Source: Escherichia coli (GTDB lineage Bacteria > Pseudomonadota > Gammaproteobacteria > Enterobacterales > Enterobacteriaceae). From it: a DNA stretch of 64,000 bases. Below the pieces are notes generated by a model. It searched no databases. It was given only the letters and a program-made list of their open reading frames with translations, and was not told where the DNA came from. A program made the position numbers and the translations under genes. Location: NCBI RefSeq assembly GCF_024502345.1, contig NZ_JALDNN010000003.1; one strand, 5' to 3'. Shown here piece by piece: positions 35,795 through 64,000 of this stretch; position 1 is the stretch's first letter; every line of letters begins with the position of its first letter.

Positions 35795-35829
35795 GCGAGA
35801 GTCTTCAATTTTTGTTCTGGAGGTGTGAC

Positions 35830-36399
35830 ATGGACATTGATTTCAAGAAGTTGGCTCCCTGGAACTGGTTCAAGAAGGAGCAGGAAGAACAACAGAGCAC
35901 TGCCTCGCTGCCGGTGCAGCGCAATGACCTGCCGGTAGCGGGTGGGCCCGTCAGTCCCATCCTGCAATTGCACCGCGAGATCGACCGCCTCTTCGACGAC
36001 ACGTTTCGAGGCTTCGGCTTTCCGGCGCTGGCCATGCCACGCTGGCCGTCGGACTGGCCGGGCCTGCTGAAGCCGGCGCTGGACATCCAGGAGACCGACA
36101 AGCAGTACAAGATTTCTTTGGAGGTTCCCGGCGTCGAGGAAAAAGACATCCATATCACGCTCGACAACGACGTGCTGCTGGTTCGCGGTGAAAAGCGTCA
36201 GGAGCAGGAAAGCAAAGACGGCGGTTTCCACCGGGTGGAGCGCTCCTACGGCAGCTTTCAGCGCGCTCTGAACCTGCCGACCGATGCCAACCAGGACACG
36301 ATCAAGGCCGCTTTCAAGAACGGCGTACTCACGATCACAATGGAAAAGCGCGAGGCCAGTGCGCCCAAGCAGGGCCGCTCGATCCCGATCAACGGCTGA
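35830..36399 (+). CDS. small heat-shock protein (Hsp20/alpha-crystallin family)
   Basis: ATG at 35830 with GGAGG upstream; alpha-crystallin-domain blocks (ALDIQETDKQYKISLEVPGVEEKDIHITLDNDVLLVRGEK ... GVLTITMEK). Confidence 0.8.
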   Translation: MDIDFKKLAPWNWFKKEQEEQQSTASLPVQRNDLPVAGGPVSPILQLHREIDRLFDDTFRGFGFPALAMPRWPSDWPGLLKPALDIQETDKQYKISLEVPGVEEKDIHITLDNDVLLVRGEKRQEQESKDGGFHRVERSYGSFQRALNLPTDANQDTIKAAFKNGVLTITMEKREASAPKQGRSIPING

Positions 36400-36496
36400 C
36401 GCCGATCGGCTTGTTCTCTACAGAAAAACCAAGTGAATGGCGAGGCGCCGTGACCTTCGGCGCCTCGTCAAATCAGTCCTCTCAAGGAGCATGAGC

Positions 36497-48388: not shown

Positions 48389-48709
48389 GAAGAAACAACC
48401 GCGTACTGGATGATTACCCCACCAAAAGGGAAAATATTAGGCGTTGTCAAAGGGAAACCTGCGTGGGTTGATATTCCTCCGCCAACACAGGAAGAGCTGA
48501 TCCAGGTCGCTGAGCGTGAGAAAAAGCGACTAATTAATGTGGCTAACGACTTCATTAATAGTAAACAATGGCCTGGTAAAGCGGCAATCAAACGACTGAA
48601 AGACAATGAACTGGTGCAATACAATCTGTGGCTTGATTATCTTGATTACCTTGAATCAACAGACGCATCAACAGCACCTGATATTGACTGGCCTGAGATG
48701 CCAATATAG
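48389..48709 (+). pseudogene. phage tail-fibre assembly protein (Tfa) C-terminal fragment, 5' end removed by IS26
   Basis: C-terminal ...LWLDYLDYLESTDASTAPDIDWPEMPI matches the conserved Tfa C-terminus (..VDTSTAPDIEWP..) recalled from memory; reading frame abuts the IS26 end. Confidence 0.6.
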
Positions 48710-48819
48710 GAACCTTTTGTGGATTGAGATTTTTAATGTCAGCGAAGCTCTTCGTCAAAAGTGAAACTCTGATAACCTGGTTCTACTGACGAACAGAAGG
48801 ATAAGCAGGAGATCGCTTT

Positions 48820-49380
48820 ATGATTATTGGGTATGCACGAGTATCAAGTAACCATCAGGACACCGAGCTTCAGATGCAGGCGCTCAGAGCTGCTGGCTGT
48901 AAGTTAATTTTTGAGGAAAAGGCTTCTGGCCGTAAGACGAACCGACCAATTTTGAAGAAAGTGGTTGAGATGCTTGAACCCGGTGACGAGCTGGTCATCT
49001 GGAAGCTGGATCGTATCGGTCGCAATGTGCTGCACGCATTATTGACGTTTCAGAGCCTCGCAGAACGCAATGTTAACATCCGTTCTATTACTGATGGCGT
49101 TGACCTGAGTACCGCCAGTGGGCGCTATAACTTCCGTAATATTCTCTCTGCGGCACAATATGAGTCTGATCTGAATAGTGAACGCACTTTGGCGGGGTTA
49201 GCGGTTGCCCGCGCTAAGGGGAGGATTGGCGGACGTAAGCCTAAGTTCACTAATGAGCACTGGGATGCGTTTGAACGGGAAATTAAGTCCGGCTGCTCAC
49301 ATCGTGATATAGCTCTCAAATATGGAGTCGGCCTGTCGACTCTCTACAAACGTTATCCGGCTCAGCAAGAGCATCAGTAA
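48820..49380 (+). CDS. serine recombinase, DNA invertase family (Gin/Hin/Pin-like)
   Basis: 186 aa; MIIGYARVSSNHQDTELQ ... GRIGGRKPKF ... LSTLYKRYPA parallels Mu Gin (MLIGYVRVSTNDQNTDLQ ... GRIGGRPPKL ... LSTLYKKHPA). Confidence 0.85.
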   Translation: MIIGYARVSSNHQDTELQMQALRAAGCKLIFEEKASGRKTNRPILKKVVEMLEPGDELVIWKLDRIGRNVLHALLTFQSLAERNVNIRSITDGVDLSTASGRYNFRNILSAAQYESDLNSERTLAGLAVARAKGRIGGRKPKFTNEHWDAFEREIKSGCSHRDIALKYGVGLSTLYKRYPAQQEHQ

Positions 49381-49389
49381 ACACTCTTT

Positions 49390-49500
49390 GCGTTCATTTT
49401 TGCACTGTGCAGAATGTGTCTTTTTGGCACCTTCCGACAGTGCAAAATTTATCGCGTTTTTGTGCAAAAAAAATCGCCGCGCTACAAAACGTGTGCTATA
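49390..49500. repeat. cluster of TTTTGCAC-containing repeats in both orientations (possible Mu-like transposable-phage end sites)
   Basis: TCATTTTTGCACTGTGCAG, CGACAGTGCAAAATTT and GTTTTTGTGCAAAAAAAATCGC lie just downstream of the invertase gene; related motif recurs near 52410-52475; coordinates approximate. Confidence 0.35.
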
Positions 49501-49622
49501 CTTGTGCTCATGCGGTTGGATTTCCTATCCCCCCGACCCGCGCTGCGGCGGGCCGAAAAATCCCAGGGATGGGTTTTTTCGGTGTTTTCCTCGTTGGCAC
49601 ATTCAAGAGTAAGGAGCGTTCC

Positions 49623-50231
49623 ATGAAGCTGTATTACACCCCCGGCGCCTGTTCCATGGCCCCGCACATCGCCCTGCGCGAAGCCGGCCTGAAATTCGAC
49701 CTGGAAAAGGTCGACCTGATGACCAAGAAAACCGAATCGGGCGCCGACTTCACCGCCATCAATCCCAAAGGCTACGTGCCGGCGCTGCAGCTCGACAACG
49801 GCCAGGTGCTGACCGAGGTCGGCGTGGTGCTGCAATACATCGCCGACCAGAAGCCGGGCAGCGGACTGGCCCCGGCCGCCGGCACGCTCGAGCGCTACCG
49901 CCTGATGGAGATGCTGAATTTCATCTCCACCGAGCTGCACAAGAACTTCGGTCCGCTGTTCAACCCGGCGGCCGGCGACGACGCCAAGAAAGCAGCCATC
50001 GAGATGATCGGCAAGCGCCTTGGCTACCTCGACCAGCAGCTGGCCGGCAAGCAGTATCTGCTCGGTGACACCTTCACGGTGGCCGACTGCTACCTCGCCA
50101 CCATGCTCGGCTGGTGCCAGTACGCCAAGCTCGACCTGTCGGCCTGGCCGAACATCGGCGCTTACGCCGGCCGCGTGATGAGCCGCCCGGCGGTGATCGA
50201 GACGATGAAGGCCGAAGGCCTGATGGGCTGA
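49623..50231 (+). CDS. glutathione S-transferase
   Basis: ATG at 49623 with AAGGAG upstream; 202 aa; GST N- and C-terminal domain blocks (MKLYYTPGACSMAPHIALREAGL..., DTFTVADCYLATML); high GC. Confidence 0.8.
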   Translation: MKLYYTPGACSMAPHIALREAGLKFDLEKVDLMTKKTESGADFTAINPKGYVPALQLDNGQVLTEVGVVLQYIADQKPGSGLAPAAGTLERYRLMEMLNFISTELHKNFGPLFNPAAGDDAKKAAIEMIGKRLGYLDQQLAGKQYLLGDTFTVADCYLATMLGWCQYAKLDLSAWPNIGAYAGRVMSRPAVIETMKAEGLMG

Positions 50232-50314
50232 GGGCCACCTGCCGATGCGGCGCGGGTCACGCCCGCGCCGCACGGCGTCAATCCATACCCCCCATCGATT
50301 CCCCAGGAGCCCCC

Positions 50315-51106
50315 ATGCTCGTCGAACGCATCTGGACCGGTAATTCGTACCGCAACTTCAACTACCTGATCGCCTGCCCCGAGACCGGCGAAGCGCTGGC
50401 GATCGATCCGCTGGACCATGAAAAAACCCTGAACACGGCCAGGGTCAAGGGCTGGCAGATCACGCAGATCCTCAACACGCACGAGCACCACGACCACACC
50501 GGCGGCAACGCGGCCGTGGTGGCGGCCACCGGCGCCAAGGTGATCGCGCACCACAAGGCCGCGGGCAAGATCGAAGGCATGGACCGCGGCGTGAAGGCCG
50601 GGGACGTGATCAAGGTCGGCCGGCACATCGAACTGGAATGCCTGGACACGCCCGGCCACACGATGTGCCACATCTGCCTGCGCTCGCACACCGACGAGCC
50701 GGCGCTGTTCTCCGGCGACACGCTGTTCAACGCGGGCGCGGGCAACGTGCACTACGGCGGCAGCGTGGACGAGCTCTACACCACCTTCGTGCAGCAGCTC
50801 GCGAAGCTGCCGGAGAACACCCGCGTCTACCCGGGGCACGACTACATCGAGAACAACCTGCGCTTCACGCTCGCGCGCGAGCCCGGCAACGCGGCCGCGC
50901 AGGCATTGCTGCCGCGGGTGACCGGGCATGACCCGGCCACTTCGGTGGTCACCACGCTGGCCGAGGAGAAGCGCTTCAACACCTTCTTCCGCCTGGCCAG
51001 CCCCGAGGTGATCGCCAAGCTGCGCGAGAGCTTTCCCGAGCTGCCGGAACAGCCCGACGCGAAGACCGTGTTCACCAAGCTGCGCGAGCTGCGCAACCAG
51101 TGGTGA
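50315..51106 (+). CDS. MBL-fold metallo-hydrolase (hydroxyacylglutathione hydrolase / glyoxalase II-like)
   Basis: ATG at 50315 with CAGGAG upstream; metal-binding motif THEHHDHTGG; ~263 aa; high GC. Confidence 0.75.
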   Translation: MLVERIWTGNSYRNFNYLIACPETGEALAIDPLDHEKTLNTARVKGWQITQILNTHEHHDHTGGNAAVVAATGAKVIAHHKAAGKIEGMDRGVKAGDVIKVGRHIELECLDTPGHTMCHICLRSHTDEPALFSGDTLFNAGAGNVHYGGSVDELYTTFVQQLAKLPENTRVYPGHDYIENNLRFTLAREPGNAAAQALLPRVTGHDPATSVVTTLAEEKRFNTFFRLASPEVIAKLRESFPELPEQPDAKTVFTKLRELRNQW

Positions 51107-51151
51107 GCAGCGGCCGGCGCCGGCCCCTTACTTCAGCGTGAACCGCACGGT

Positions 51152-52165
51152 GTGCACTTCCATGTCTGCGCAGTCGATGGCGTGTTTGAGGAAGTGGCGG
51201 GCGAGGAGGGCGATGCTGCTGATGCAGCTTCTCAAAGCTCACCATCGCGCATCATCTTCCACCCCGCCACCGGCGTGACTGCGGATGCCGTGGGTCAGGT
51301 GCAGGCCAGCTTACGCAAACGCATCCTGCGCGCCTTTGTCGGACGGGGCCTGCTGGAGAGTTTCGAGGCCCAAGAGATGCTGGGCTACAAGCACAGCGGG
51401 TTTTCGGTGGACACCAGCGTGTGCATAGCGGCGCACGACCGCGCCGGGCTGGAGCGGCTGCTGCGCTACTGCGCCCGCCCGCCGTTTGCCATGGAGCGGC
51501 TGCGCAAAGCGGGCAGCGAGCTGGTCTACCGCTGCGCCAAGCAGCACAGCGAGCCCGGCAGCCTGCCTCACAACAAGCGCGGCGTAAAGGCCGATGAGAT
51601 CACCCTCACCCCGCTGGAGCTGATTGAACGTATCGCCAAGCTGGTGCCCCCGCCGCGCACGCACCGCCACCGCTACTTTGGCGTGCTGGCACCGAACTCA
51701 CCCTTGAGGCCTGCCGTCACGGCGCTGGCGCGTGATGCAGCGGTGAAACCGGCGCAGGTGCAAGCCGAGCCAGCCAGCACGGCTGCAGGCGAGGGCGCAC
51801 TTGGGGTAAGAAGCCCACTGCCAACCCAGACCGAGCCCGCCCAGCCGGTGCCACCCAAGCGCCCGGCGCACTATTTGTGGGCGGTGCTGATGGCCCGTAT
51901 CTACGAGGTGTTCCCGCTGCTGTGCCCCATCTGCGGCGGGCAAATGCACATCATCGCCTTCATCACACACAGTGCCGATATCCGCCAAATACTGGAGCAC
52001 ATCGGGGTGGAGACGGAGCCGCCGCACATCACCCCGGCACGCGGGCCGCCACTGTGGGACGAGTGCGACGCGCAAGCCGCAGAGGGCGTGGAGCCAGCCC
52101 CAGACTGGGATGAAGCGACCCAACCGGCCCCGGACTTCGAGGTCGATCAGCGCGTCAGTTGGTAG
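51152..52165 (+). pseudogene. IS91-family (rolling-circle, HUH) transposase, C-terminal fragment
   Basis: No credible N-terminus; retains blocks HFHVCAVDGVF, RYFGVLAPNSPLR and zinc-ribbon-like LCPICGGQMHIIAFIT followed by ILEHIGV..PP, as recalled for IS91-family transposase C-termini. Confidence 0.55.
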
Positions 52166-52399
52166 GGTGGCAACAGCGGTTAACAGTGGTTTTGCCAACG
52201 TTGCGAGGCAGCGCTGCGCCTGTCACCGCCAAAAACGGGTCATACCGAAAAATCTCGGGCAACTGGCTTTGAGAAATCAACCCAGCAGTCCCCTGTGTGC
52301 ATGCCTGAGACGCCCCAAACTGTGGGGAGGTGATCGTTTTTGCATGGGGGAGAGGTCTTGATAAAATGCCGGGAGGGCTTGCGGTAAGCGAGATTGAGA

Positions 52400-52480
52400 G
52401 AAAAACTGAGTTTTGCACTACTAAAAAAGAAATGAGAAAAAATAGCTATTTTTGCGTTTAATTTTGCACTTTTATGAAAG
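52400..52480. repeat. TTTTGCAC-containing direct repeats upstream of the Mu-like c/ner module (possible transposable-phage left-end sites)
   Basis: GAGTTTTGCACTACTAAAAAAGAAA and TAATTTTGCACTTTTATGAAAG about 45 bp apart; same core motif as the 49.4-kb cluster; coordinates approximate. Confidence 0.3.
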
Positions 52481-52582
52481 TCTTTAGATCCGTTTTAAAG
52501 ACCGTTTAAGCATTTATCAATGCCAGGCACTATACCGTATAGTAGGTTGGTATGTAAGAAGTTGGCTCTGACACCATCTAGC

Positions 52583-53215
52583 TTAAACGGCCTTCTTGTC
52601 TTCACTTGTTAGGCCAGATTCGGCTGCCTTCTGATCAAGTTCAGATGACCCTTTTTTCATCTGCTCATGTATTCGAAGTAAGCGCTCTTGTTCTGCTTGT
52701 GGTAGTTCTACCAGTACGCTGAGCGTATCGTTATATTTCGAGAGAAGATCTAGTACACCTCTAACCCCCATCCTTGCATAGATATCGATGAGTTTCTTTT
52801 TCTCATCGTGGTCTAATGCTTCAAAAAACATTGCCCATGTTAGAGATAAAAATTTGTCATCCTTAAGTGGCACTGCTGTAAATGCGAAAGGACTTGAGCC
52901 ATCGGTTAAACCATTCTCTATGATTGGTTGAGCCTGTCCATTGCTGCTATGAGCTTCATCCAACATGTAGACGCCATCCTTACCGGTCGCTAGCCACGCA
53001 AGGCTCACGTTTTCTATCTCTGAAATTTTCACCAGGATTTCCACACTCGGAGTGGCTGAACGTGCGAAGTAGTTGTTCAGCGTCGAGTATGGCAGGTCCC
53101 AATCTAGAGAAACTTTCCTGAGACTTCTCCCTTTGAAAAGAGACTTCATCCTATCGCGAATACTTTCTTTTCCTGATTGAGCAAAAGAAACATTCTCTTT
53201 CTTTACTGTATTCAT
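52583..53215 (-). CDS. Mu-like phage repressor c homologue (HTH)
   Basis: 210 aa; divergent from and adjacent to the ner-like gene as in phage Mu; C-terminus ...DKKAV as in Mu Repc (...KKAV); HTH-like N-terminal region. Confidence 0.55.
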   Translation of the reverse strand: MNTVKKENVSFAQSGKESIRDRMKSLFKGRSLRKVSLDWDLPYSTLNNYFARSATPSVEILVKISEIENVSLAWLATGKDGVYMLDEAHSSNGQAQPIIENGLTDGSSPFAFTAVPLKDDKFLSLTWAMFFEALDHDEKKKLIDIYARMGVRGVLDLLSKYNDTLSVLVELPQAEQERLLRIHEQMKKGSSELDQKAAESGLTSEDKKAV

Positions 53216-53397
53216 TTTCTTTTCCTTTTAACTGGTTGAAATAATTAATTAAAATTGATTTTCTCACCTGAGTTTTCTCACATGAGAAAAGAAAGAGCTT
53301 TATTTGCTTTACTCTTTCTCAAATTGGATCAATACTTATCCCAACGGATAACCCCTGCGGATTATCCGCCCGGTTAACTTTTTAGGGTAATCGAAGT

Positions 53398-53625
53398 ATG
53401 GAAATAAATGAAGTACAGCGTGACTGGCATCGCATTGATATTGTCGCCGAGCTGCACAAGCGTGGCGTCACTATGCGCGGCCTTTCCGCCAGCGCGGGAC
53501 TAAAACCCGACACGCTGAAAAATGCGCTGGCACGCTCTTATCCAAAAGGAGAGCGCATTATTGCAAATGCTCTCAATTTAGAACCCGCCAGTATCTGGCC
53601 AAGCCGTTACAACAAGGACCTGTGA
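53398..53625 (+). CDS. Ner-like DNA-binding protein (Mu Ner / Nlp family)
   Basis: 75 aa; RDWHRIDIVAELHKRGVTMRGLSASAGLKPDTLKNALARSYPKGERIIANALNLEPASIWPSRY parallels Mu Ner (RDWHRADVIAGLKKRKLSLSALSRQFGYAPTTLANALERHWPKGEQIIANALETKPEVIWPSRY). Confidence 0.75.
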   Translation: MEINEVQRDWHRIDIVAELHKRGVTMRGLSASAGLKPDTLKNALARSYPKGERIIANALNLEPASIWPSRYNKDL

Positions 53626-53742
53626 CATGTTCGTGACTGTTAACGAATTAGTTGGCGTCCCTGGACTGCCAACAACACAACAAGGACTGCGATACAGCCT
53701 TAAAAAAAGTGCAGGCAACTCCCCTGAACTGGTTCGCAAACG

Positions 53743-54562
53743 GGCACTGTTGCAAATAGTCGGTGGTGATAAACTTATCATCCCCTTTTGCTGATGGAGC
53801 TGCACATGAACCCATTCAAAGGCCGGCATTTTCAGCGTGACATCATTCTGTGGGCCGTACGCTGGTACTGCAAATACGGCATCAGTTACCGTGAGCTGCA
53901 GGAGATGCTGGCTGAACGCGGAGTGAATGTCGATCACTCCACGATTTACCGCTGGGTTCAGCGTTATGCGCCTGAAATGGAAAAACGGCTGCGCTGGTAC
54001 TGGCGTAACCCTTCCGATCTTTGCCCGTGGCACATGGATGAAACCTACGTGAAGGTCAATGGCCGCTGGGCGTATCTGTACCGGGCCGTCGACAGCCGGG
54101 GCCGCACTGTCGATTTTTATCTCTCCTCCCGTCGTAACAGCAAAGCTGCATACCGGTTTCTGGGTAAAATCCTCAACAACGTGAAGAAGTGGCAGATCCC
54201 GCGATTCATCAACACGGATAAAGCGCCCGCCTATGGTCGCGCGCTTGCTCTGCTCAAACGCGAAGGCCGGTGCCCGTCTGACGTTGAACACCGACAGATT
54301 AAGTACCGGAACAACGTGATTGAATGCGATCATGGCAAACTGAAACGGATAATCGGCGCCACGCTGGGATTTAAATCCATGAAGACGGCTTACGCCACCA
54401 TCAAAGGTATTGAGGTGATGCGTGCACTACGCAAAGGCCAGGCCTCAGCATTTTATTATGGTGATCCCCTGGGCGAAATGCGCCTGGTAAGCAGAGTTTT
54501 TGAAATGTAAGGCCTTTGAATAAGACAAAACGCTGCCTCATCGCTAACTTTGCAACAGTGCC
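53743..54562 (+). mobile_element. IS26 copy 3
   Basis: 820 bp with the same 14-bp IRs; interrupts a molybdoenzyme gene on its right side. Confidence 0.95.
53806..54510 (+). CDS. tnpA: IS26 transposase Tnp26
   Basis: Identical in translation to copy 2. Confidence 0.95.
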   Translation: MNPFKGRHFQRDIILWAVRWYCKYGISYRELQEMLAERGVNVDHSTIYRWVQRYAPEMEKRLRWYWRNPSDLCPWHMDETYVKVNGRWAYLYRAVDSRGRTVDFYLSSRRNSKAAYRFLGKILNNVKKWQIPRFINTDKAPAYGRALALLKREGRCPSDVEHRQIKYRNNVIECDHGKLKRIIGATLGFKSMKTAYATIKGIEVMRALRKGQASAFYYGDPLGEMRLVSRVFEM

Positions 54563-55246
54563 GTTTTACTTTCCCGCACAATCAACAAGCTGGAGCCGGG
54601 TTCTTGCACATTCCCGCAGGAGTTCAATCATAAGCGTTGGCTGGACCAGGAATTCAATGACGGAATGGCCAAAATGTTTGGCATCTCCTCATGGGATGAC
54701 TTACTGGATGGCCCGAAAAAAGCCATTTTGCCGAGTTCTGCGGCCTGGTATGACCGCAAATTTAAAACCCCCTCAGGAAAGTTTGAGTTCAGATCTGAGC
54801 TGTGTGAGAAAAATGGCCATACGGCGCTGCCGGAATACAAACCGGAGGCGAAAAGCACGCTGCCATTCCACTTGTTTACACCGCATGTGCAGTTCGGTAT
54901 CCATTCCCAATTTATCAACCTTGACTGGATGCAGGTCTTCTATCCGGAGCCGTTTGTCTATATGCATCCGATTTCCGCAGAAAAAAGAGGCATTGCCGAA
55001 AACGACCTGGTGAAAGTGTTTAACACCGTAGGTGAAGTAGAACTGCGTGCGAAGGTGACCGCTAACGTTCCGGAAGATTTCCTGGTGATGTACGAGGCGT
55101 GGTTCCCGAAAAGGAAATACAACGTTCAAAACGTGGTGGCAGATACCCCAGCCGATATGGGGTTGATGAAAACCGGTGCGCCAGGTGCGGCTATCCACAG
55201 TCAGTTTGCGGACATCATTTTGATCAGTAAAGGAGCAGCGGCATGA
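54563..55246 (+). pseudogene. DMSO-reductase-family molybdopterin oxidoreductase catalytic subunit, 3' fragment (5' part removed by IS26)
   Basis: Frame encodes the C-terminal molybdopterin-dinucleotide-binding region (...VKVFNTVGEVELRAKVTANVPEDFLVMYEAWFP...); followed by Fe-S and anchor subunit genes. Confidence 0.65.
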
Positions 55247-55800
55247 GACGCGCGTTTTTAGTTAATAGCGATAAATGCATCGGCTGCCGTGGCTGTGCAA
55301 TGGCGTGTAAGAGTTTTAACCAGTTGGAACCTGAACGTTTCTGGCGCTATGTCTACCCGCTGGATAAAGAAATTTATCCGCATGAAGAGCGGGCGTTCTA
55401 TTCGCTGGCCTGTAACCACTGCGAAAACCCGGCCTGTCTGGCGGCGTGTCCGGTAGAGGCGTACACCAAGCGTGAAGATGGTGTCGTGGTGCATAACCCA
55501 GAGCGCTGTATTGGATGCAAAAACTGTATCCGCAACTGCCCATACGGTGCGCCGCGTTTTAATGAGGAGACGAAGAAAGCGGAAAAATGCAGCATGTGCT
55601 ACGAGCGCCTTGATGTTGGTATGCAACCGGCTTGCGTGAATGCCTGTCCGGTAGGTGCGCTGACGCTTATCGATCTGGATGCCGATCCTATACCTGACAA
55701 TGCCGTACAGTATCCGCCGGGATTCCCGCGTATGCCGCAGCTTAATCCTGGCACGCGTTTTATCCTTGCGCGTCAGCCGAAGCAGCCGGAGGGTAATTAA
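55243..55800 (+). CDS. 4Fe-4S ferredoxin-type electron-transfer subunit (DmsB-like)
   Basis: Four Cys clusters (CIGCRGCAMAC, CNHCENPACLAACP, CIGCKNCIRNCP, CSMCYERL...CVNACP); start overlaps the upstream stop. Confidence 0.8.
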   Translation: MRRAFLVNSDKCIGCRGCAMACKSFNQLEPERFWRYVYPLDKEIYPHEERAFYSLACNHCENPACLAACPVEAYTKREDGVVVHNPERCIGCKNCIRNCPYGAPRFNEETKKAEKCSMCYERLDVGMQPACVNACPVGALTLIDLDADPIPDNAVQYPPGFPRMPQLNPGTRFILARQPKQPEGN

Positions 55801-56567
55801 TGGAAAAGTATGAACTTCCGCTGGTCATTTTTACCGTATTGAGCCAGATGTCGGTTGGGATCACGCTCATTCTGACGCTACGCACGCTGCAAGGAAAACT
55901 GGAAAGCAAACGCCTGTACTGGCTGGTAAGTGGGCTGGTTCTGGCGGTGGCGTCCGTTGCAGCGATCCTGCACCTTGCGCATCCGGATCGCGCCTACGAT
56001 GCCCTGATTAACCTGCAGCACGCCTGGCTGAGCCGTGAAATTCTTGGCGCCACCTTATACGGTGCGGCGGTCGGGGTGACGTTTTTGGCAAAAGGGCACA
56101 AAGCGCCAGCTGTTCTGGCCTCTGTTCTCGGTATCGCGCTGGTGGCGGTGCAGGGGATGACCTATGCTGCCCCGGCAATGGTGGCGATCGCCAACGGTCT
56201 GACAATGCTGTTGTTCTTTATCACGGTGTGGGTGATGGGGTGTGCGGCGATTCCACTGCTTAACCTTGCACCTGCCGTTGCCGCATTACGCCAGGGGATT
56301 GTTGTGTGTATGGCGGTCATGATCGCCGCGCCCATTATCTGGCTAAGCGGCGGCACCATCATGCAGATGACGGCGCATGCCTGGCTGACGTCGCCGCTTT
56401 ATCTGGCGAGTCTGGTGTGTCTGGCGGTGGCCTTTGTGCTAAGCCGTCAGGGAGAGCGTCGCGCAAAAGCGCTTTTTGTCCTGCTGTTTGTTGGCATATT
56501 CCTGAGTCGTCTGACGTTCTTTGGCGATACGATCAGCACCATCGTGAATATCGGTCATTTGTATTGA
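55800..56567 (+). CDS. DmsC-like membrane anchor subunit
   Basis: 255 aa, about eight hydrophobic helices; translationally coupled to the Fe-S subunit gene. Confidence 0.7.
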   Translation: MEKYELPLVIFTVLSQMSVGITLILTLRTLQGKLESKRLYWLVSGLVLAVASVAAILHLAHPDRAYDALINLQHAWLSREILGATLYGAAVGVTFLAKGHKAPAVLASVLGIALVAVQGMTYAAPAMVAIANGLTMLLFFITVWVMGCAAIPLLNLAPAVAALRQGIVVCMAVMIAAPIIWLSGGTIMQMTAHAWLTSPLYLASLVCLAVAFVLSRQGERRAKALFVLLFVGIFLSRLTFFGDTISTIVNIGHLY

Positions 56568-56636: not shown

Positions 56637-57065
56637 TTAACGAACAACCAGCACTGGCAAAGTCGCGTGGCGGACAACGCTGGAAGCGTTTGAGCCGAGC
56701 AGATGGGTGCTGATTGATGGGTTACGCGACCCAATGACAACGACATCTGCATTCAACTCTTCACCCAACTCGTTGACCACATCACGGACACTGCCAAAGC
56801 GGACGTGTTGCTTAATACGGGAAGGATCGATGCTGAAGTGACCGACCATCGTTTGCAGACGGGTTTCCGCTTCGTGTTGCAGATGCTCTTCAAAACGACG
56901 GACATCGGCCGCAAAGCGGTGCAGGCTTAAGCTCGCTGAGCCTGGCAGCACATGCAGCAGATGGATAACCCCTTTATCCTGGGCCAGAAATTCTGCATGG
57001 CGAATAGCCTTGTCGCTCAGTTCCATTTCGAATACATCAACAGGCATTATGATTGTGTTGTACAT
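56637..57065 (-). CDS. uspG: universal stress protein UspG
   Basis: [30 protein letters not shown]...[18 protein letters not shown] closely matches E. coli UspG (YbdQ); AAGGAG 7 nt upstream of this ATG; synteny with rnk. Confidence 0.85.
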
Positions 57066-57248: not shown

Positions 57249-57659
57249 TTAGCGCAGGTAGTCGCCTGCAGCTTCAGGCTGGTACTCAAGCTCAATAACT
57301 TCGAGGTGCGTTGAGGTCCCGCCTGGCAGTTCCCAGTGAATGGTATCACCAACGCGCAGCCCCAAAAGTGCAGCGCCGACAGGTGCCATTACCGAAAGCT
57401 GTGTGCTGCTGTCAGTCATAGTGGCCGGATACACCAGGGTACGCACACGGACTTCGCCATCACTCAGATTGCGGAATTTCACGCGGCTGTTCATGGTCAC
57501 GACATCGTGCGGCATGGTTTCTGGAGAACACATTTGGGCACGATCCAGCTCGGCGTTAAGGGCGTCGGCAATCGGTAAACCAGCAAACGCAGGTTGCTCC
57601 AACAGGCGGTCAATGCGTTCCGCATCGAGGTCGTTAATGATGATAGTTGGTCTGGACAT
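57249..57659 (-). CDS. rnk: regulator of nucleoside diphosphate kinase Rnk (GreA/GreB family)
   Basis: 136 aa; [44 protein letters not shown] closely matches E. coli Rnk. Confidence 0.9.
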
Positions 57660-58238
57660 TTATTACTCCATGTCGTCGATACTGCGGGTGCGCAGGTAAA
57701 TAATCCCAAAAGAAAACCCTCACCGTCAGGCGGCAAGGGTTTAGCTTTTATGATGATACTGAGACTTACCCCATGTTTGAAGTGATTTAGTTCACATTCA
57801 GGCAAATCATCAATATTGTCGCGTATGGTGTAATGTCAGTCAGTTAACGAACCTAAGGTAATAAATCTGTTGCCTCCGTCGCATTGCTACGTTCACCTTA
57901 TGTTATTCACTTCTCTGAAACCATCCTACCTGTGAACGTGTTAAGGGTACTATCGCCGTACCCTTAACAATCCCGGCGGGAGCCTGGGTTGCAAGGGAGG
58001 CGGCGGTGAGCCTCCCTTGCTCGTTCACGGGTATCAGTGCTTCAGAGAAGTGATACCGCTGAGGTGAACGGAACCCTGAGCCGGGATCACATGTTCCCTA
58101 TAATGCTTAACTGACAAGCATTACGCGTATGGTGTGATTTTAGCCGAAAAACGTGATCGTTCTCCAATTTGCATTATGCTTTTTAAGCGCTCGCTGCGGG
58201 CGCGTCAAACAACTCAGTGTTCCGCGACAGGAGATCTC

Positions 58239-59069
58239 ATGAGCCAGTACGACAAACTTACCTTGAAAGACGGCAGCTATTTGCATTTTAAAGATTGGGG
58301 AAGTGGACAGCCCATTGTCTTCAGTCATGGTTGGCCGCTGACGGCAGATGCGTTTGAGGATCAGATGTTATTCCTCGGGTCGAAAGGATTTCGTGTGATC
58401 GCCCATGACAGGCGTGGGCATGGGCGTTCGGCCCAACCCTGGGATGGTCACAATATGGAGCAGTATGCTGACGATCTGGCTGAACTTACCGCGCATCTCA
58501 ATCTTAAAGATGCCGTCCATGTCGGACACTCTACCGGCGGCGGGGAAGTGGCGCGGTATATTGGCCGCCATGGAACGCAGCGGGTCGCAAAAGCGGTGTT
58601 AATTGGCGCGGTGACGCCCATTATGATCAAGACTGACTTTAATCCAAATGGCGTGCCGAAAGAGGTATTCGATGGCATCCGTGAGGGGGTTGTGAACGAT
58701 CGCGCCGCCTTTTTCTATGAATTGACCGCTGCATTCTATGGCTACAACCGTCCTGGCGCAAAAGAGTCGAAAGCCGTCAGGGAAAGTTTTGTTGAACAGG
58801 GTTTACAAGGTTCCATCAAAGCGTTGTACGACTGTATCCACGCGTTTTCGGAAACAGATCTGCGTGAGGATCTCAAAAAGATGACCATCCCGACGCTGGT
58901 GATCCACGGTGATGACGATCAGATTGTCCCGTTTGAAACCTGCGGAAAGGTCGCGGCGGAAATACTGCCTGATTCGCAGTTGAAGGTATATGTCGGCGGC
59001 TCGCATGGCATTTGCACCACCCATAAACAACAGATCAACGGTGACCTGCTCAACTTTATTCAGTCGTAA
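58239..59069 (+). CDS. alpha/beta-fold hydrolase (non-haem haloperoxidase/esterase-like)
   Basis: ATG with AGGAG upstream; nucleophile elbow GHSTGGG; ~276 aa. Confidence 0.7.
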
Positions 59070-59165
59070 TCGTTGGCAGATTGTTCTACGCTGATCTTCT
59101 TTTTCCAGGGGGATGAGCGAAGCATAATTTGTGCTGCGCTGACGTTAACTTCAACAGGGAACGCT

Positions 59166-59789
59166 ATGTATTTCTATCAACCGTCACAGGGACACGGCTT
59201 ACCGCATGACCCGCTAAATGCCATCATTGGACCGCGCCCGATTGGTTGGATTGCGTCGCGTGACGGCAATGGTCGGCACAATCTGGCACCATACAGTTTC
59301 TTTAACTGTTTTAACTATCATCCGCCGATTATCGGTTTCGCCAGCAGCGGCTGGAAAGACAGCGTGCAGAATATTATTGAAACCGGTGAATTTGTCTGGA
59401 ACCTGACGACTCTTGAGCTGGCCACTGCGATGAACGAAACGTCAGCCAGCTTGCCGCACGGTGAGGACGAGTTTTTTGCCGCCGGGCTTAGCAAGGCAGA
59501 TAGCCGGATAGTCAACGTGCCGCGCGTGGCGCAAAGCCCGGTCAATTTTGAGTGTCGCTTATCGCAAAGCCTGCAACTAACTACCGCTGATGGCTCACCG
59601 GTTGATACCTGGCTGGTATTGGGGGAAGTGGTGGGCATCCACATCGATGAAACGCTCCTGGAGGACGGCATCTATCAGACGGCGAAAGCGAAGCCGGTAC
59701 TGCGCGCAGGTGGGCCAACGGCATATTATTCGATCAGTGAAACACACCGTTTTGATTTAGTTCGCCCGGACGCCCGAGCAAAACGCTAA
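59166..59789 (+). CDS. flavin reductase-like domain protein
   Basis: 207 aa; N-terminal region IGPRPIGWIASRDGNGRHNLAPYSFFN typical of flavin-reductase-like FMN-binding proteins. Confidence 0.6.
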   Translation: MYFYQPSQGHGLPHDPLNAIIGPRPIGWIASRDGNGRHNLAPYSFFNCFNYHPPIIGFASSGWKDSVQNIIETGEFVWNLTTLELATAMNETSASLPHGEDEFFAAGLSKADSRIVNVPRVAQSPVNFECRLSQSLQLTTADGSPVDTWLVLGEVVGIHIDETLLEDGIYQTAKAKPVLRAGGPTAYYSISETHRFDLVRPDARAKR

Positions 59790-59830
59790 GCTTACGGACC
59801 GACGCCAGCTTGCAGCGTCGGTCGCAAGTT

Positions 59831-60637
59831 TCAATATCCCACTTTGTCGATAATAAACTGTTTACCGCAGATACCTGGATGCGGTTGCGGTAAGAATGAC
59901 TGTGCAGATAACGTCTGGTTGATGTTGTCGGCTTTCAGGGATAACTGGATCTCAGTGAGATACGCCGGATTGCCGTGGCAGCTTAGCTTCACAGCTTTGA
60001 CGTTCTCTTTGCCCCAGCTTTTGGCAACTGCGGCGTCAAATGCGTTACGGCTGACAGTTTTGCCGTAGTTTTCCGCCAGGAATTTGCCCACCTCGCTGTT
60101 CTTAACCTCATTATTCAGCCGTACCATCGTGCCAAAGTACGCGTCGGGATCAAAACCGAAACACGCGCCATGTTTGGCATACTCGTAACGTTCCAGACAG
60201 GATCTCCCTCCAGCGCCGGGCATTACGGCGCTGAGTTTTGCTGCGCTTTCCAGCGACAGCCCGGTTTCGGGGGCCGCGCATTTACGGCTGGCACGTGCTT
60301 CAGGCAGGTTGGGAATAGGGCGAGTCGCGCAGCCAAAACGCATCCAGCGGCGGTTGTCGACTCCACGGGCGGCAATGGATTTAGGCAGGCTGGGCCATAA
60401 ACCGTGAACGGTCAGGAAATCCGCTTTGTCTGCGCTCTCTTTTTGTAAACGACATTCGTCAGGCTCCTGACGATTACGCTCGTGTTGGCTCTGACAAAAT
60501 CCGGTTTGCCAGGAGAGGGCCAGCACGTAGCTGTCAAAATCAGTGTATTGTTTTGCCTGAAGTTCATCGGCCTGAGCTGCAGAAACTGGCAGCAGAAGCG
60601 CTGCCAGTAATGAAGAATAACGCCATGTTGATGTCAT
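59831..60637 (-). CDS. rna: ribonuclease I (RNase T2 family)
   Basis: 268 aa with signal peptide; RNase T2 catalytic block FLTVHGLWP; synteny rnk ... rna-citT as in E. coli. Confidence 0.85.
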   Translation of the reverse strand: MTSTWRYSSLLAALLLPVSAAQADELQAKQYTDFDSYVLALSWQTGFCQSQHERNRQEPDECRLQKESADKADFLTVHGLWPSLPKSIAARGVDNRRWMRFGCATRPIPNLPEARASRKCAAPETGLSLESAAKLSAVMPGAGGRSCLERYEYAKHGACFGFDPDAYFGTMVRLNNEVKNSEVGKFLAENYGKTVSRNAFDAAVAKSWGKENVKAVKLSCHGNPAYLTEIQLSLKADNINQTLSAQSFLPQPHPGICGKQFIIDKVGY

Positions 60638-60747: not shown

Positions 60748-62211
60748 TTAGCTCCACATCGCCAGAATCGGCCAGCCGACCAGCAGAAGCATAGAGATGT
60801 AGATAACGCCGAAGATAGCACCCAGACGCCAGTAGTCTTTGGACTTCACATAACCACAGCCGTAGATGATAACGCCAGGGCCTGTTGCATATGGAGTCAG
60901 ACAGCCCATGATACCGATGGACAGTACCAGCAGGATACACAGGTGTTCCATCGGCACGCCCGGGATACCTTTACCGACAGCCAGAATAACCGGCAGCATG
61001 GTGGCAGTGTGTGCAGAAAGGCTGGCAAACAGGTAGTGAGCAAAGTAGAACACCAGCACCAGCACGATTACGGTCGCGTTAGGCGAGAAGCCTTCCAGGT
61101 GCGTGCTCATGGTGTTGGCGAACCAGTCGATGAAGCCTGAACGGGTTAAACCATTCGCCATAACGACCAGCGTGGCGAGGTTAACCAGGGTGTTCCATGC
61201 GCTGTTATAGCGGGTAATGTCTTTCCACGGTACCACATGCAGCGCCAGCATCAGGGAGACAGCAAGCAAACCCACTGCGGTTGCATCAATCAGTTTACCA
61301 CCGAAGACCCACAGGCCCAGGCTGAGCAGAACCAGACCGATCAGCGTTATCTCTTTACGGGTCAATTTACCCATGCCTTTCAGTTCATCACCGGCCCATG
61401 CGGCAACTTCAGCACTGTGAGTGACCTCTGGTTTGTACAGAACGTATGACAACCACGGAGCAACGATCAGCAAAATAATACCAACCGGCAGGAAGCTGAG
61501 GAACCATTGCAGCCAGCTGATTTGAATACCGGCAATTTTGTTGACGAATTCCAGACCCAGTACGTTTGGCGCAGCGCCGGTCACGAACATAGAGGAGCTC
61601 AGGCTGGTACTGATTACCATCATCCACATCAGGTATCCGCCGATACGGCGCGCGGAAGGATCGTTCGGGAATGATTTAAACAGCGGCGGCAGGTTTTTGA
61701 TAACCGGGAATACGGTACCACCGGTACGCGCGGTGTTAGACGGTGTAAACGGCGCCAGCAGAATGTCGATGATAACAATCGCATAGCCCAGCGTCAGGGT
61801 GCGTTTACCCATGAATTTCACCAGGAACAGCGCGATACGACGACCCAGACCGGTGACTTCATAACCCAGTGCGAAGATAAACGCACCAAACACCAACCAC
61901 ACGGTGGTGCTGGAGAAGCCCGCCAGACCCCATTTCAGCGCTTGCTTACCCGCTTTAAATGCCGGGTCGGCCAGTTCTGAAGCATCAAACAGCAGATAGT
62001 TGCTGCCGATAACGCAGATCGTTACGGCGATAAAGCTGATCGCTGTTGCCGGAATTGGCTCCAGGATCATACCGACGATCATCGCCACAAACACGGCAAA
62101 GTAGTGCCAGGCCTGTGGAGGCATTCCATCAGGGACGGGGATAAGAAACATGACGCCCATTACGACCAATGGGGCCAGTAACTTCCATATTTTATCTTTT
62201 GCTAAAGACAT
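60748..62211 (-). CDS. citT: citrate:succinate antiporter CitT
   Basis: 487-aa polytopic transporter; N-terminus and overall pattern match CitT; adjacent to citG/citX/citF. Confidence 0.9.
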   Translation of the reverse strand: MSLAKDKIWKLLAPLVVMGVMFLIPVPDGMPPQAWHYFAVFVAMIVGMILEPIPATAISFIAVTICVIGSNYLLFDASELADPAFKAGKQALKWGLAGFSSTTVWLVFGAFIFALGYEVTGLGRRIALFLVKFMGKRTLTLGYAIVIIDILLAPFTPSNTARTGGTVFPVIKNLPPLFKSFPNDPSARRIGGYLMWMMVISTSLSSSMFVTGAAPNVLGLEFVNKIAGIQISWLQWFLSFLPVGIILLIVAPWLSYVLYKPEVTHSAEVAAWAGDELKGMGKLTRKEITLIGLVLLSLGLWVFGGKLIDATAVGLLAVSLMLALHVVPWKDITRYNSAWNTLVNLATLVVMANGLTRSGFIDWFANTMSTHLEGFSPNATVIVLVLVFYFAHYLFASLSAHTATMLPVILAVGKGIPGVPMEHLCILLVLSIGIMGCLTPYATGPGVIIYGCGYVKSKDYWRLGAIFGVIYISMLLLVGWPILAMWS

Positions 62212-62236
62212 GTGTGTGATTCTCCGGAAAGGATCT

Positions 62237-63142
62237 TTAATTGTGATAATGATGAACTTGTGAAATCTGAGCTAAGAACCAGGTGACGATCAGCAGATCG
62301 GCGCAGCCTCCGGGACTGAGGTTGCGTTCAATGCACTGTTGGTCGAACTGGTGTAGGTATTCGAGATCGGCAGGGGTACGAATCCCCCCTTGCTGCATCA
62401 GGGCAGTGGCCTGCTGCTGTAGCCAACGCAGACCTTCTGCGCCGCCACGTGAAGCCACGTTGGTGTCGCCGTTGATAGACATCAGCAGCAATAAAGTGTC
62501 GAGTAACGCCAGTTCAGGGTCGCGGCCCTGAGTCAGCAGTGCGCGGTAGTGCGGCAGGGCATGCTGGATGACTAGCGGGTATCCCGCTTCGGCTTCGCCC
62601 CGTGCGCCGGTTAATCCCAGTTGCTTATAAAGACGTTGGCCTGCCGTGAGTTGTTGATTGTTCTGGCGCAGTTCGCGCTCGGTCAGACCACGGCAAAATG
62701 TCGCTGCCGTAGAGCAAATGGTTTCAGCGGTAACAGTTAGTTGGAGCTGGTGCAGGCGGCCAATGGCGGCGCACAGCAGGCCCAGAGAAAAGATGCTTCC
62801 TTTATGAGTGTTCACCCCGGCGGTGGCGCGGAACATATCAGCTTCGCAGGCCATGCCCAGCGGGCGCAGTCCTTTCAATACATCCTCAGGCGACAGCTGT
62901 GCGCTAAACGCCCCATATTCAATAAAACGTGGCAGCCAGGCCTGAATAGCCTCGGCGCTGCGATGAAAATCTTCCAGCGCCATATCTTTATGCGCGCCGT
63001 TGTTAATACGATCTACCAGACCGGGTTTGGGTGACAGGTTGACTTCAGTCAGCATGGCGCGCCACGCGAGCGTTGCGTAAGCATCAGGCAGATCCAGAGG
63101 AAGGACTGCATTATTGGTTGATGTTGCGGGAATCGGCATCAT
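62237..63142 (-). CDS. citG: triphosphoribosyl-dephospho-CoA synthase CitG
   Basis: Start taken at [11 protein letters not shown] (track ORF extends 24 codons further upstream); blocks [48 protein letters not shown] match E. coli CitG. Confidence 0.85.
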
Positions 63143-63665
63143 GCAGCAGTGCCTCCATCTGAGTGAGTAAGTCGGAAAGTGCGTGGGTTTTACCCCGCGC
63201 ACAGTCGGCAGCACTTTGCTCGCACAGCAGACAGCGGCGGGCAGGGAGTGCGAAATGACGCCGGGACAGAATTTCCCCTTCAGGGGTCAGGACATCGATG
63301 TCCCATAGCCGTCCCAGCGGGTGTGAATGCTCAAGTTCAATCGTGGCGAGCTTGAGGTCGTGGGCCGGAGCCTCAATAGACAAAAGACCTTCTGGACCGC
63401 TGGCAGAAACCAGCGCTGTTTGCTCCCTGACAATCCAGGCTGATTGTTCCGCCAGCGCGAGCAAGGCGGTTACGCCGTGATTAAAGATGCGACGGGTTAA
63501 TGCGCTGTCTTTAATCGGACCCGGTGCGACTACGGTGAACGAGACCAGTGGCGCAGAGTGGCGTGTCAGCCAGTCCTGTTGCCTTGCTTGTCTCTTATCG
63601 CGGCTGGCGAGCAGCTCGGGAATCGAAACCGCGTGTTGGGTGGCGAGTTCAGGGAGCAGGTGCAT
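63111..63665 (-). CDS. citX: apo-citrate lyase phosphoribosyl-dephospho-CoA transferase CitX
   Basis: 184 aa between citF and citG, overlapping the citG start; position and size fit CitX. Confidence 0.85.
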
Positions 63666-63668
63666 GGC

Positions 63669-64000
63669 TTATTCCTTCACCTGATGCACAACGTCAATCA
63701 CTGAACCGTCGCGATAACGCACAACGGCAATCACGCGGTCAGTGAATTCGATAGCGCGTGGCTGACCGGTGAGTTGCTGTGTACGTTCGCGCAGCCATTC
63801 AATGGACACCACTTTCATACCGGCTTCTTTCAGTCGTTCTGCCAGTTCCGGACGTGCAGGGTTGACGGCGATACCATGGTCAGTGACCAGAATGTCAACG
63901 CTGGAGCCAGGGGTTACGCAGGTCAGCACGTTATCAACCAGCGTCGGGATGCGTCCGCGAACCAGCGGTGCGACGATGATGGAAAGCGCTGCGGCCACAG
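63669..64000 (-). CDS. citF: citrate lyase alpha subunit CitF, C-terminal part (5' end beyond window)
   Basis: Open to the window edge on the minus strand; stop at 63669 just upstream of citX; C-terminal sequence consistent with CitF. Confidence 0.8.
   Translation of the reverse strand, partial: VAAALSIIVAPLVRGRIPTLVDNVLTCVTPGSSVDILVTDHGIAVNPARPELAERLKEAGMKVVSIEWLRERTQQLTGQPRAIEFTDRVIAVVRYRDGSVIDVVHQVKE

Follow-up and report, generated by a model that had tools for sequence, protein, structure and literature searches.

The gene order rnk-abh-flr-rna, in which an alpha/beta hydrolase gene (abh) and a flavin-reductase-like gene (flr) lie between rnk and rna, is very probably the native chromosomal order of Citrobacter freundii, brought into the window (the whole 64,000-nucleotide stretch of DNA analysed) by IS26 capture of a 16,482-bp piece of chromosome on an IncHI1 plasmid. 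Both genes are known, as is their arrangement; this is ordinary biology and not a new islet. Both are members of well-studied enzyme families, receive routine annotation and stand in a standard Citrobacter/Enterobacter gene order; by themselves they are of little importance. The only mildly notable point is the capture of chromosomal DNA by IS26. The features of the captured fragment within the window, and its left boundary, are given below; the sibling record is the plasmid NZ_LR890350.1.

53743..54562, + strand: IS26, left boundary of the captured fragment (820 bp, perfect 14-bp terminal inverted repeats)
54563..55246, + strand: 3' remnant of a dmsA-like molybdopterin oxidoreductase gene, cut by IS26 (Pfam Molydop_binding)
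55243..55800, + strand: dmsB-like 4Fe-4S subunit gene (TIGR02951, 143 bits, below the cut-off; Pfam Fer4_11)
55800..56567, + strand: dmsC-like membrane anchor gene (Pfam DmsC, 65 bits)
56637..57065, - strand: uspG (NF012000, 305 bits against a cut-off of 189; annotated in the sibling record)
57249..57659, - strand: rnk, nucleoside diphosphate kinase regulator (NF004396, 200 bits against a cut-off of 109)
57705..57813, - strand: leader RNA element of rnk, RF01771 of Rfam (matched in full length, 1-109; 122.5 bits, gathering score 50)
57830..58124, unstranded: palindromic MITE-like repeat of 295 bp in the rnk-abh spacer (terminal inverted repeats and flanking direct repeat CGCGTATGGTGT)
58239..59069, + strand: abh, alpha/beta hydrolase, 276 aa, intact (Pfam Abhydrolase_1, 105 bits against a cut-off of 25.8, residues 25-259)
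59166..59789, + strand: flr, flavin-reductase-like split-barrel protein, 207 aa, intact (Pfam PF01613 Flavin_Reduct, 70.5 bits against 27)
59797..59823, unstranded: 9-bp inverted repeat GACCGACGC...GCGTCGGTC in the spacer of the convergent genes flr and rna (read from the sequence)
59831..60637, - strand: rna, RNase I (NF007502, 547 bits against a cut-off of 436)
60748..64000, - strand: citT, citG, citX and the start of citF, citrate fermentation cluster (TIGR00785; sibling record annotation)

The encoded proteins

Homology shows the abh product to be a predicted serine hydrolase (Ser-His-Asp) of the cofactor-free haloperoxidase/perhydrolase/arylesterase type. It matches chloroperoxidase F (PDB 1a8s) with E = 4e-111 and 60% identity over 270 columns, and the next ten PDB hits are all chloro-/bromoperoxidases or aryl esterases (E = 1e-98 to 1e-90). 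The triad Ser98-Asp227-His256 is intact, the nucleophile elbow (GxSxG) reads GHSTG, and an HGWPL motif is present. CPO-F of Pseudomonas fluorescens (1A8S) resembles abh in length (~275 aa), in its alpha/beta hydrolase fold and in its aligned Ser-Asp-His triad; the two do not differ in the GxSxG elbow or in the HGWPL motif, and we take Ser94/Asp224/His253 of CPO-F to be the counterparts of S98/D227/H256. Related cofactor-free haloperoxidases, perhydrolases and the aryl esterase PFE include 1VA4, 3HEA, 1A88, 1A8Q, 1ZOI and 4DGQ. In contrast to the CPO-F group, abh is found in a conserved enterobacterial housekeeping neighbourhood (ahpCF-uspG-rnk...rna) and not in an antibiotic biosynthesis context. 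Enzymes of the perhydrolase group hydrolyse esters via an acyl-enzyme intermediate and form peracids when H2O2 is the acceptor (PMC3962183). The specific pathway enzymes PcaD, RutD and BioH were rejected as assignments for abh, their NCBIfam scores all being far below the cut-offs. An identical abh protein is encoded on 219 contigs that bear the name C. freundii.

As for flr, its homologues indicate a small split-barrel FMN-dependent NAD(P)H oxidoreductase, with the domain spanning residues 24-173. PDB matches are 3bpk (E = 6.5e-27, nearly full length), 1eje and 4z85 (NbaA, E = 4e-16). The PF01613 proteins that flr resembles are thus 3BPK of B. cereus ('NTA monooxygenase component B'), the FMN-binding protein 1EJE of M. 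thermautotrophicus and the 2-nitrobenzoate nitroreductase NbaA (4Z85). The NCBIfam search gave no family or equivalog for flr; the exact protein is named flavin reductase family protein [C. freundii] in the sequence collection. No partner flavin-dependent monooxygenase is located beside flr in the window or in the C. freundii and Enterobacter chromosomes, where its neighbours are abh and rna. Hence, flr is not demonstrably the reductase of a two-component monooxygenase.

Distribution and polarity of the rnk-rna interval

The preliminary description of this DNA had reported a hydrolase and a flavin-reductase-like gene as an insertion between rnk and rna relative to E. coli K-12. The two genes are there, intact and above the Pfam cut-offs, and the K-12 order was given correctly, with rnk and rna adjacent and ybdR between uspG and rnk: MG1655 reads ahpF-uspG-ybdR-yldA-rnk-rna-citT, with a gap of 229 bp between rnk and rna. 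The Dms-like operon described before uspG was confirmed as well, its dmsA-like gene being cut by IS26 at 54562/54563. The flanking genes of the K-12 locus are orthologous to those of the window and have the same order and orientation (protein identity of 92% for uspG, 93% for rnk, 81% for rna and 95% for citT), and the rnk leader RNA is conserved between the two. The K-12 locus differs in having ybdR and in lacking abh, flr and the dms-like operon. The gene ybdR is also missing in some E. coli strains.

In 5,422 of the 5,426 complete E. coli genomes searched, the match is limited to the flanking genes, and the single record covering abh-flr is a plasmid. Both genes are absent from Salmonella. 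No remnants of abh or flr were detected in the rnk-rna spacers of E. coli K-12 and Salmonella by tblastn (E up to 10) or blastn (word size 7), all matches being confined to the rnk leader and the ends of the genes.

The neighbourhood of abh was compared in 80 loci from related genomes of about 20 genera. In 54 of these loci, rnk is located divergently upstream of abh, and flr follows abh directly in 20 of the 54, the other 34 being without flr. Besides Citrobacter, the genera with abh in the rnk-rna interval include outgroups as distant as Buttiauxella. The order ahpCF-dms-like-uspG-rnk-abh-flr-rna-citT is shared without exception by the C. freundii contigs read, and rnk-abh-flr-rna is also found on an Enterobacter chromosome. 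Moreover, the identity of abh correlates with that of its neighbours (rho of 0.86 with rnk, 0.89 with uspG and 0.94 with rna).

Since abh occupies the interval in Citrobacter and the outgroups, with a divergence tracking that of its neighbours, the absence of abh and flr in Escherichia and Salmonella is best read, and most simply explained, as loss; this rests on parsimony and the accepted genus phylogeny and not on a computed tree. The polarity implied by the word insertion is therefore probably reversed. In this scenario, abh would be an ancient gene of the enterobacterial (Enterobacteriaceae) rnk-rna interval with vertical inheritance, and flr would be its more patchily distributed neighbour, found in Citrobacter and Enterobacter without an obligate link to abh.

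A possible functional link between abh and flr

It has to be considered whether abh and flr form a functional two-gene module. In a first variant, the flavin reductase would supply reduced flavin, autoxidation of the latter would yield H2O2, and the perhydrolase would use it to make peracids; in a second, a single xenobiotic ester or nitroaromatic compound would be processed by the two enzymes in turn. The two genes lie on the same strand and are separated by a spacer of 96 bp without a predicted terminator, so that co-transcription and some functional link are possible. The adjacency is conserved in Citrobacter, Enterobacter, Lelliottia, Huaxiibacter and Silvania, flr identity tracks rnk identity (rho of 0.85), and the locus is near ahpCF. 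Nevertheless, abh occurs without flr in the majority of the Enterobacteriaceae loci mentioned above, and flr has been cleanly lost, with abh retained, in two Citrobacter lineages. Outside the synteny group, none of 26 loci has an flr homologue within 6 kb of abh (E <= 1e-2), and in Klebsiella a 75%-identical flr homologue stands alone between rlmF and ybiJ. Taken together, the two variants of the module are unlikely.

A more elaborate proposal is improbable. It holds that abh and flr are a co-transcribed oxidant-handling module that Escherichia and Salmonella lost and that E. coli now regains via IS26 and IncHI1, with a second citrate-fermentation system as selectable cargo. In this proposal, flr could supply H2O2 by autoxidation of reduced flavin or consume an oxidised product, and the perhydrolase could turn short-chain acids into peracids. 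Most likely, abh and flr are hitch-hikers on the plasmid rather than selected cargo.

The preliminary description had also suggested a small strain-specific islet, i.e., horizontal insertion of the pair between rnk and rna in the host lineage. The absence of the pair from E. coli and Salmonella and the patchy occurrence of flr would fit this suggestion. Furthermore, the rnk-rna interval holds other variable genes in other genera, such as a GntP permease, a toxin-antitoxin pair and an AraC regulator. However, abh is found at the same site in about 20 genera and diverges along with the flanking genes, and the GC content of abh and flr is normal (0.49-0.565 compared to 0.46-0.58 in the flanks). 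The borders also lack the marks of an islet. No integrase or transposase ORF is present between rnk and rna in the window, and no tRNA or att-like repeats were found at the abh-flr borders, where the sole repeat is the MITE-like element, which does not bracket the two genes. Above all, the arrangement is identical in each C. freundii contig read; such universality in the host species is what the description itself had named as speaking against its proposal. An islet is thus very improbable and already largely refuted. In the reading of rnk-abh-flr-rna as a native gene order, Enterobacteriaceae have a small plasticity zone between rnk and rna, the conserved core of which is abh.

Plasmid context and capture by IS26

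The window is plasmid and not chromosome. Positions 1-48388 are IncHI1 plasmid DNA with at least 99.9% identity. Segments 1-12606 and 12607-48388 are 99.9-99.98% identical to the IncHI1A plasmid NZ_LR890350.1, a closed circular, conjugative plasmid of 300 kb sequenced from E. coli, and segment 53742-64000 differs from it by one mismatch over 10,259 bp. Salmonella IncHI1 plasmids also match positions 1-25000 (99.4%). Other sibling IncHI1 plasmids, e.g., CP081783, do not contain the Citrobacter fragment. Direct comparison ruled out that the window and NZ_LR890350.1 are identical, as a 9.6-kb indel and a replaced segment of 5.3 kb separate them.

Identity to the C. freundii chromosome begins at 54560-54563. 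An alignment of 12,510 bp to a multi-Mb C. freundii contig (99.97%) is free of gaps and has 4 mismatches, and 7 mismatches were counted against the 5.18-Mb chromosome CP154587.1. The preliminary description had attributed the backbone to a related but different enterobacterial lineage. The lineage was rightly recognized; the backbone was not, the Citrobacter DNA being a passenger of 16.5 kb that is enclosed by IS26 copies on a conjugative plasmid of the IncHI1 type.

The left boundary is an IS26 with the terminal inverted repeat GGCACTGTTGCAAA at 53743-53756 (+) and 54549-54562 (-) and a transposase ORF at 53788-54510; it is annotated as IS26 in the sibling record. Past the end of the window, the fragment continues in the sibling record with citEDC-dpiBA and ends in a truncated dcuC, which is followed by a second IS26. 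In the coordinates of that record (L001), the two copies are located at 16044-16863 and from 33346, with tnpA on the + strand in both, and the right-hand copy is itself interrupted by an IS66-family element. The captured fragment extends between two direct IS26 copies from the interior of the dmsA-like gene to the interior of dcuC. It carries the dmsA-like 3' end, dmsBC-like, uspG, rnk, abh, flr, rna, citTGXFEDC, dpiBA and the dcuC 3' half. Both ends of the passenger coincide with IS termini: the high identity to C. freundii starts at the IS26 end, and the dmsA-like gene and dcuC are cut there. In C. freundii chromosomes, the dmsA-like gene is found full-length (756 aa) at the same place; the dcuC remnant at the right junction comprises residues 216-460. 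The plasmid region around the fragment is crowded with further IS26 copies.

These features are those of IS26 pseudo-compound transposons and translocatable units, in which two direct IS26 copies with intact 14-bp inverted repeats bracket foreign chromosomal DNA, terminal genes are cut exactly at the IS ends and the plasmid surroundings are rich in IS26. Three differences exist here: the cargo has no resistance gene and consists of housekeeping, citrate-fermentation and stress genes instead, the right IS26 is broken by the IS66-family element, and a flanking 8-bp duplication is missing. Such a target-site duplication around the IS26-bounded unit was checked for and not found (CGCAAACG on the left, GTCGCTGA on the right), as expected if the capture took place via cointegrate or conservative IS26 reactions or was followed by rearrangement. 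We thus infer the capture route rather than demonstrate it. While the plasmid resided in a C. freundii host, IS26 would likely have fused plasmid and chromosome into a cointegrate or produced a translocatable unit, and chromosomal DNA would have stayed behind on the plasmid after resolution. IS26 units have reportedly been described by Harmer, Moran and Hall as carrying chromosomal DNA onto plasmids, e.g., an IS26-flanked blaSHV from the Klebsiella chromosome. A literature search for an IS26/Citrobacter/citrate fragment on IncHI1 plasmids returned only a generic mention, namely that the IncHI1 pan-genome includes citrate utilisation genes.

The window could alternatively be the chromosome of a Citrobacter-like organism into which IS26 was merely inserted. 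Indeed, the DNA from 54563 on is C. freundii chromosomal sequence. Against this stand the IncHI1 plasmid DNA that makes up everything left of 48388, the second IS26 that terminates the fragment after 16.5 kb in the circular sibling plasmid, and the truncation of the dmsA-like gene and dcuC exactly at the IS26 ends. This alternative is extremely improbable and is refuted, barring integration of the whole plasmid in a chromosome. There is next to no probability that the plasmid-Citrobacter junction is an assembly chimera in which contaminating Citrobacter reads were joined via IS26 repeats: such repeats are classic misassembly sites and only 1 record among 72,556 plasmids carries the Citrobacter fragment, but the same junction is present in two sequences that differ elsewhere by the indel and the replaced segment, one of them a closed circular plasmid.

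With capture on the plasmid as the preferred reading, the break in K-12 synteny is the edge of a chromosomal fragment moved by IS26 from C. freundii to a broad-host-range IncHI1 plasmid. What IS26 mobilises is not limited to resistance genes, as it has here carried 16.5 kb with housekeeping, stress and citrate-fermentation functions from one genus to another, and the captured fragment is a precise record of a past host of the plasmid.

Non-coding elements of the interval

Neither the abh-flr spacer nor the sequence following flr yielded a convincing terminator in a scan for promoters and terminators. The 9-bp inverted repeat between flr and rna was not flagged by the scan; judged from its sequence, it may act as a bidirectional terminator. 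The promoters predicted in the same scan are weak consensus matches. In the Rfam scan, the rnk leader was the only hit, with no match in the abh-flr region or the MITE-like element. The leader is also the sole part of the rnk-abh spacer conserved in E. coli. The MITE-like repeat folds as DNA with -73.7 kcal/mol (z = -10.4). It is specific to the C. freundii lineage and missing in C. portucalensis, C. werkmanii and C. braakii, where the spacer measures 275 bp. One of its arms is also found in the torD-yeiP spacer of C. freundii.

Location of the abh-flr pair

The window carries an alpha/beta-hydrolase gene (abh) and a flavin-reductase-like gene (flr) between rnk and rna. Both open reading frames are intact and lie on the same strand, at exactly the positions given in the preliminary description, and family scans supported the identities of all four genes.

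Features of the rnk-rna interval in the window
57249-57659, minus strand: rnk (NF004396, 200 bits)
57705-57813, minus strand: rnk leader, full length (Rfam RF01771, 122.5 bits), with a terminator-like hairpin at 57742-57714
57830-58124: 295-bp palindromic MITE-like element in the rnk-abh spacer
58239-59069, plus strand: abh, 276 aa (Abhydrolase_1, 105 bits), AGGAG Shine-Dalgarno 6 nt upstream of the ATG
59166-59789, plus strand: flr, 207 aa (Flavin_Reduct, 70.5 bits)
59831-60637, minus strand: rna, encoding RNase I (NF007502, 547 bits)

The K-12 order given there was also correct: MG1655 reads ahpC-ahpF-uspG-ybdR-yldA-rnk-rna-citT, with rnk and rna as neighbors. Matches in 5,422 of the 5,426 complete E. 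coli genomes were to uspG, rnk and rna only, and the sole record in this set spanning the full query was a plasmid. The gene ybdR, located between uspG and yldA/rnk in K-12 and Salmonella, is polymorphic within E. coli; many strains have uspG-yldA-rnk without it, as in Enterobacter (2013C-4282 compared with K-12).

The window as an IncHI1 plasmid

The arrangement had been attributed either to the backbone of a different lineage or to a strain-specific islet. The first option fails, as the window is not chromosomal. Megablast of 57700-59830 against 72,556 plasmids gave one full-length match at 100% identity, NZ_LR890350.1, a conjugative IncHI1A plasmid of 300,631 bp from E. coli MSB1_9D. In direct comparison, the two sequences share three collinear blocks.

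Blocks shared with NZ_LR890350.1
1-12606: block 1, 99.90% identity
12607-48388: block 2, 99.98% identity
53742-64000: block 3, 1 mismatch in 10,259 bp

At the junction 12606/12607, NZ_LR890350.1 has an extra IS26-bounded 9.6 kb with genes for a cupin, a chlorite-dismutase-family protein and rpoH, and it has other DNA in place of window 48389-53741. Hence the source of the window is a sibling plasmid and not NZ_LR890350.1 itself. Classical Salmonella IncHI1 plasmids match window 1-25000 at 99.4%.

In the window, this non-shared segment holds a GC-rich IS91-family (Y2_Tnp) transposase fragment (51152-52165), GloB/GST genes, a gene for a CI-like repressor (52583-53215) and one of the Ner-like HTH_35 type (53398-53625). 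The GloB/GST genes are 99.9% identical both to 88.8-kb Enterobacter and Klebsiella plasmids and to betaproteobacterial plasmids. Further upstream (~26500-47560, coordinates transferred from the annotation of NZ_LR890350.1), a Tn7-like tnsABCDE module precedes a heat-resistance locus (clpK, cls, ftsH, sHSP20-GI, yfdX1/2, hdeD-GI), which stops at an IS26 (47569-48388).

Donor of the segment and proposed route of capture

The exact abh protein is encoded on 219 contigs named C. freundii, the largest a 5.18-Mb chromosome; the exact flr protein was also found in the collection. Gene order is identical in five multi-Mb contigs encoding this abh protein: ahpC-ahpF-(DmsD-like)-(dmsA-like)-dmsB-dmsC-uspG-rnk-[579-bp spacer]-abh-flr-rna-citT-citG-citX-citF-citE-citD-citC. 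The plasmid segment aligns to them without gaps over 12,510 bp at 99.52-99.97% nucleotide identity (4 mismatches in the best case), whereas identity is 89-96% for the species representatives of other complex members. These values identify C. freundii in the strict sense as the donor and show that the transfer was recent. This gene order is the usual one in the donor. RefSeq annotations for the pair are 'alpha/beta hydrolase' for abh and 'flavin reductase family protein' for flr.

The segment follows an 820-bp IS26 with perfect 14-bp inverted repeats (53743-54562). In NZ_LR890350.1, a second IS26 in the same orientation starts 16,482 bp further on (33346-36667 of that record). Its inverted repeats are 3.3 kb apart because an IS66-family element (tnpA/tnpB/transposase) interrupts this copy near its right end. 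Three IS26 copies are present in the window and further ones nearby in NZ_LR890350.1. The left end of the segment falls inside the dmsA-like gene (last ~193 codons left, 756 aa when intact) and the right end inside dcuC (residues 216-460 retained).

IS26 makes cointegrates and translocatable units. An IS26-rich plasmid once resident in C. freundii could have recombined with chromosomal IS26 insertions and taken along the DNA between them. Such IS26-mediated capture agrees with the gene truncations, with the exact IS ends and with the near-identity to the chromosome. No 8-bp duplication flanks the IS26-bounded unit, so the sequence does not reveal which pathway was used. Capture of chromosomal DNA by IS26 is a known process; what is unusual is limited to the cargo, which has no resistance gene but housekeeping and citrate-fermentation genes, and to its rarity (1 of 72,556 plasmid records).

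The plasmid carries the complete citrate-fermentation set of C. freundii, i.e., citT, citGXFEDC and the dpiBA two-component system (60748-64000 and beyond; 23049-32487 in NZ_LR890350.1). For an E. coli host, this is a second copy, 80-95% similar. Citrate utilization genes in general have been reported within the IncHI1 pan-genome.

Native gene pair or islet

A scan of one genome per species returned 341 abh relatives. Among the best 80, rnk lies divergently upstream in 54, rna downstream in 39 and flr directly downstream in 20. Genera represented include Citrobacter (C. portucalensis, C. youngae, C. werkmanii, C. braakii, C. amalonaticus), Enterobacter, Lelliottia, Huaxiibacter, Silvania, Trabulsiella, Raoultella, Kluyvera, Pluralibacter, Superficieibacter, Yokenella, Atlantibacter, Cedecea and Buttiauxella. 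The identity of abh to the query follows that of its neighbors (Spearman rho 0.86 for rnk, 0.89 for uspG, 0.94 for rna), a pattern that co-inherited genes should show. The GC content of the pair (0.49-0.565) is indistinguishable from that of the flanks, and neither mobility genes nor bracketing repeats are present at abh-flr. This wide distribution, neighbor-tracking divergence, normal GC and lack of mobility features rule against a strain-specific islet.

One Enterobacter chromosome reads uspG-yldA-rnk-abh-flr-rna-dcuC. Salmonella has ahpF-dms-like-uspG-ybdR-rnk-rna without abh or flr, and the rnk-rna spacers of E. coli and Salmonella contain no remnants of either gene. Only the rnk leader portion of the rnk-abh spacer is kept in both. 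The accepted phylogeny places Citrobacter together with Salmonella and Escherichia and leaves the remaining genera as outgroups. On this phylogeny, abh is most simply explained as an ancestral gene of the rnk-rna interval that Escherichia and Salmonella lost.

Variability of the rnk-rna interval

The history of flr is patchier than that of abh. Citrobacter sp. On2M, R56 and Awk 4 keep abh and lack flr, cleanly so in On2M and R56. In R56, some 70 bp of the abh-flr spacer can still be recognized by homology, which suggests that flr was deleted rather than primarily absent. In Klebsiella, the flr homologue closest among those found (75% nucleotide identity) is a solitary gene with rlmF and ybiJ as neighbors. 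The rnk-abh gap of Buttiauxella, Cedecea, Atlantibacter and some Enterobacter measures 1.8-2.0 kb and contains a gene for a GntP-family permease; 3' of abh, these loci have either a toxin-antitoxin pair of the Gp49/HI1420 type or a regulator of the AraC family. Together with the missing flr, these neighbors make the interval a small variable zone, i.e., a site of recurrent gene gain and loss with abh as its constant member.

The terminal inverted repeats of the MITE-like element are GTAATGTCAGTCAGTTAA / TTAACTGACAAGCATTAC, and the direct repeat CGCGTATGGTGT flanks it; its DNA fold is -73.7 kcal/mol (z = -10.4). It matched neither Rfam nor a named repeat family. C. freundii chromosomes carry the element, and C. 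youngae CCUG 30791 has a rearranged version; C. portucalensis, C. werkmanii and C. braakii are without it and have a 275-bp rnk-abh spacer. In C. freundii strain 62, one arm occurs again, at 88.8% identity, between torD and yeiP.

Predicted functions of abh and flr

The best solved-structure match of abh is chloroperoxidase F (CPO-F, 1a8s; E = 4e-111, 60% identity over 270 columns). Esterase 1zoi, non-haem chloroperoxidase 4dgq, P. fluorescens aryl esterase and its variants, chloroperoxidase L and bromoperoxidase A1 also match. In the alignment, the CPO-F triad falls on the GHS98TG nucleophile elbow, Asp227 and His256 of abh, and the HGWPL motif is identical. In this enzyme group, the Ser-His-Asp triad makes an acyl-enzyme, which is resolved by water (esterase) or by H2O2 (perhydrolase); the latter yields peracids that oxidize halides non-enzymatically (PMC3962183). 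We infer the same acyl-enzyme mechanism for abh.

The flr product has a split-barrel Flavin_Reduct domain resembling 3bpk (E = 6.5e-27), 1eje and the nitroreductase NbaA (4z85). No partner monooxygenase occurs near flr in the window, the C. freundii contigs or the Enterobacter chromosome. The flr product probably acts by itself, as a flavin or nitro reductase that depends on NAD(P)H. The two genes may be functionally linked, since they lie on one strand and the 96-bp spacer between them has no predicted terminator; their distribution speaks against an obligate link.
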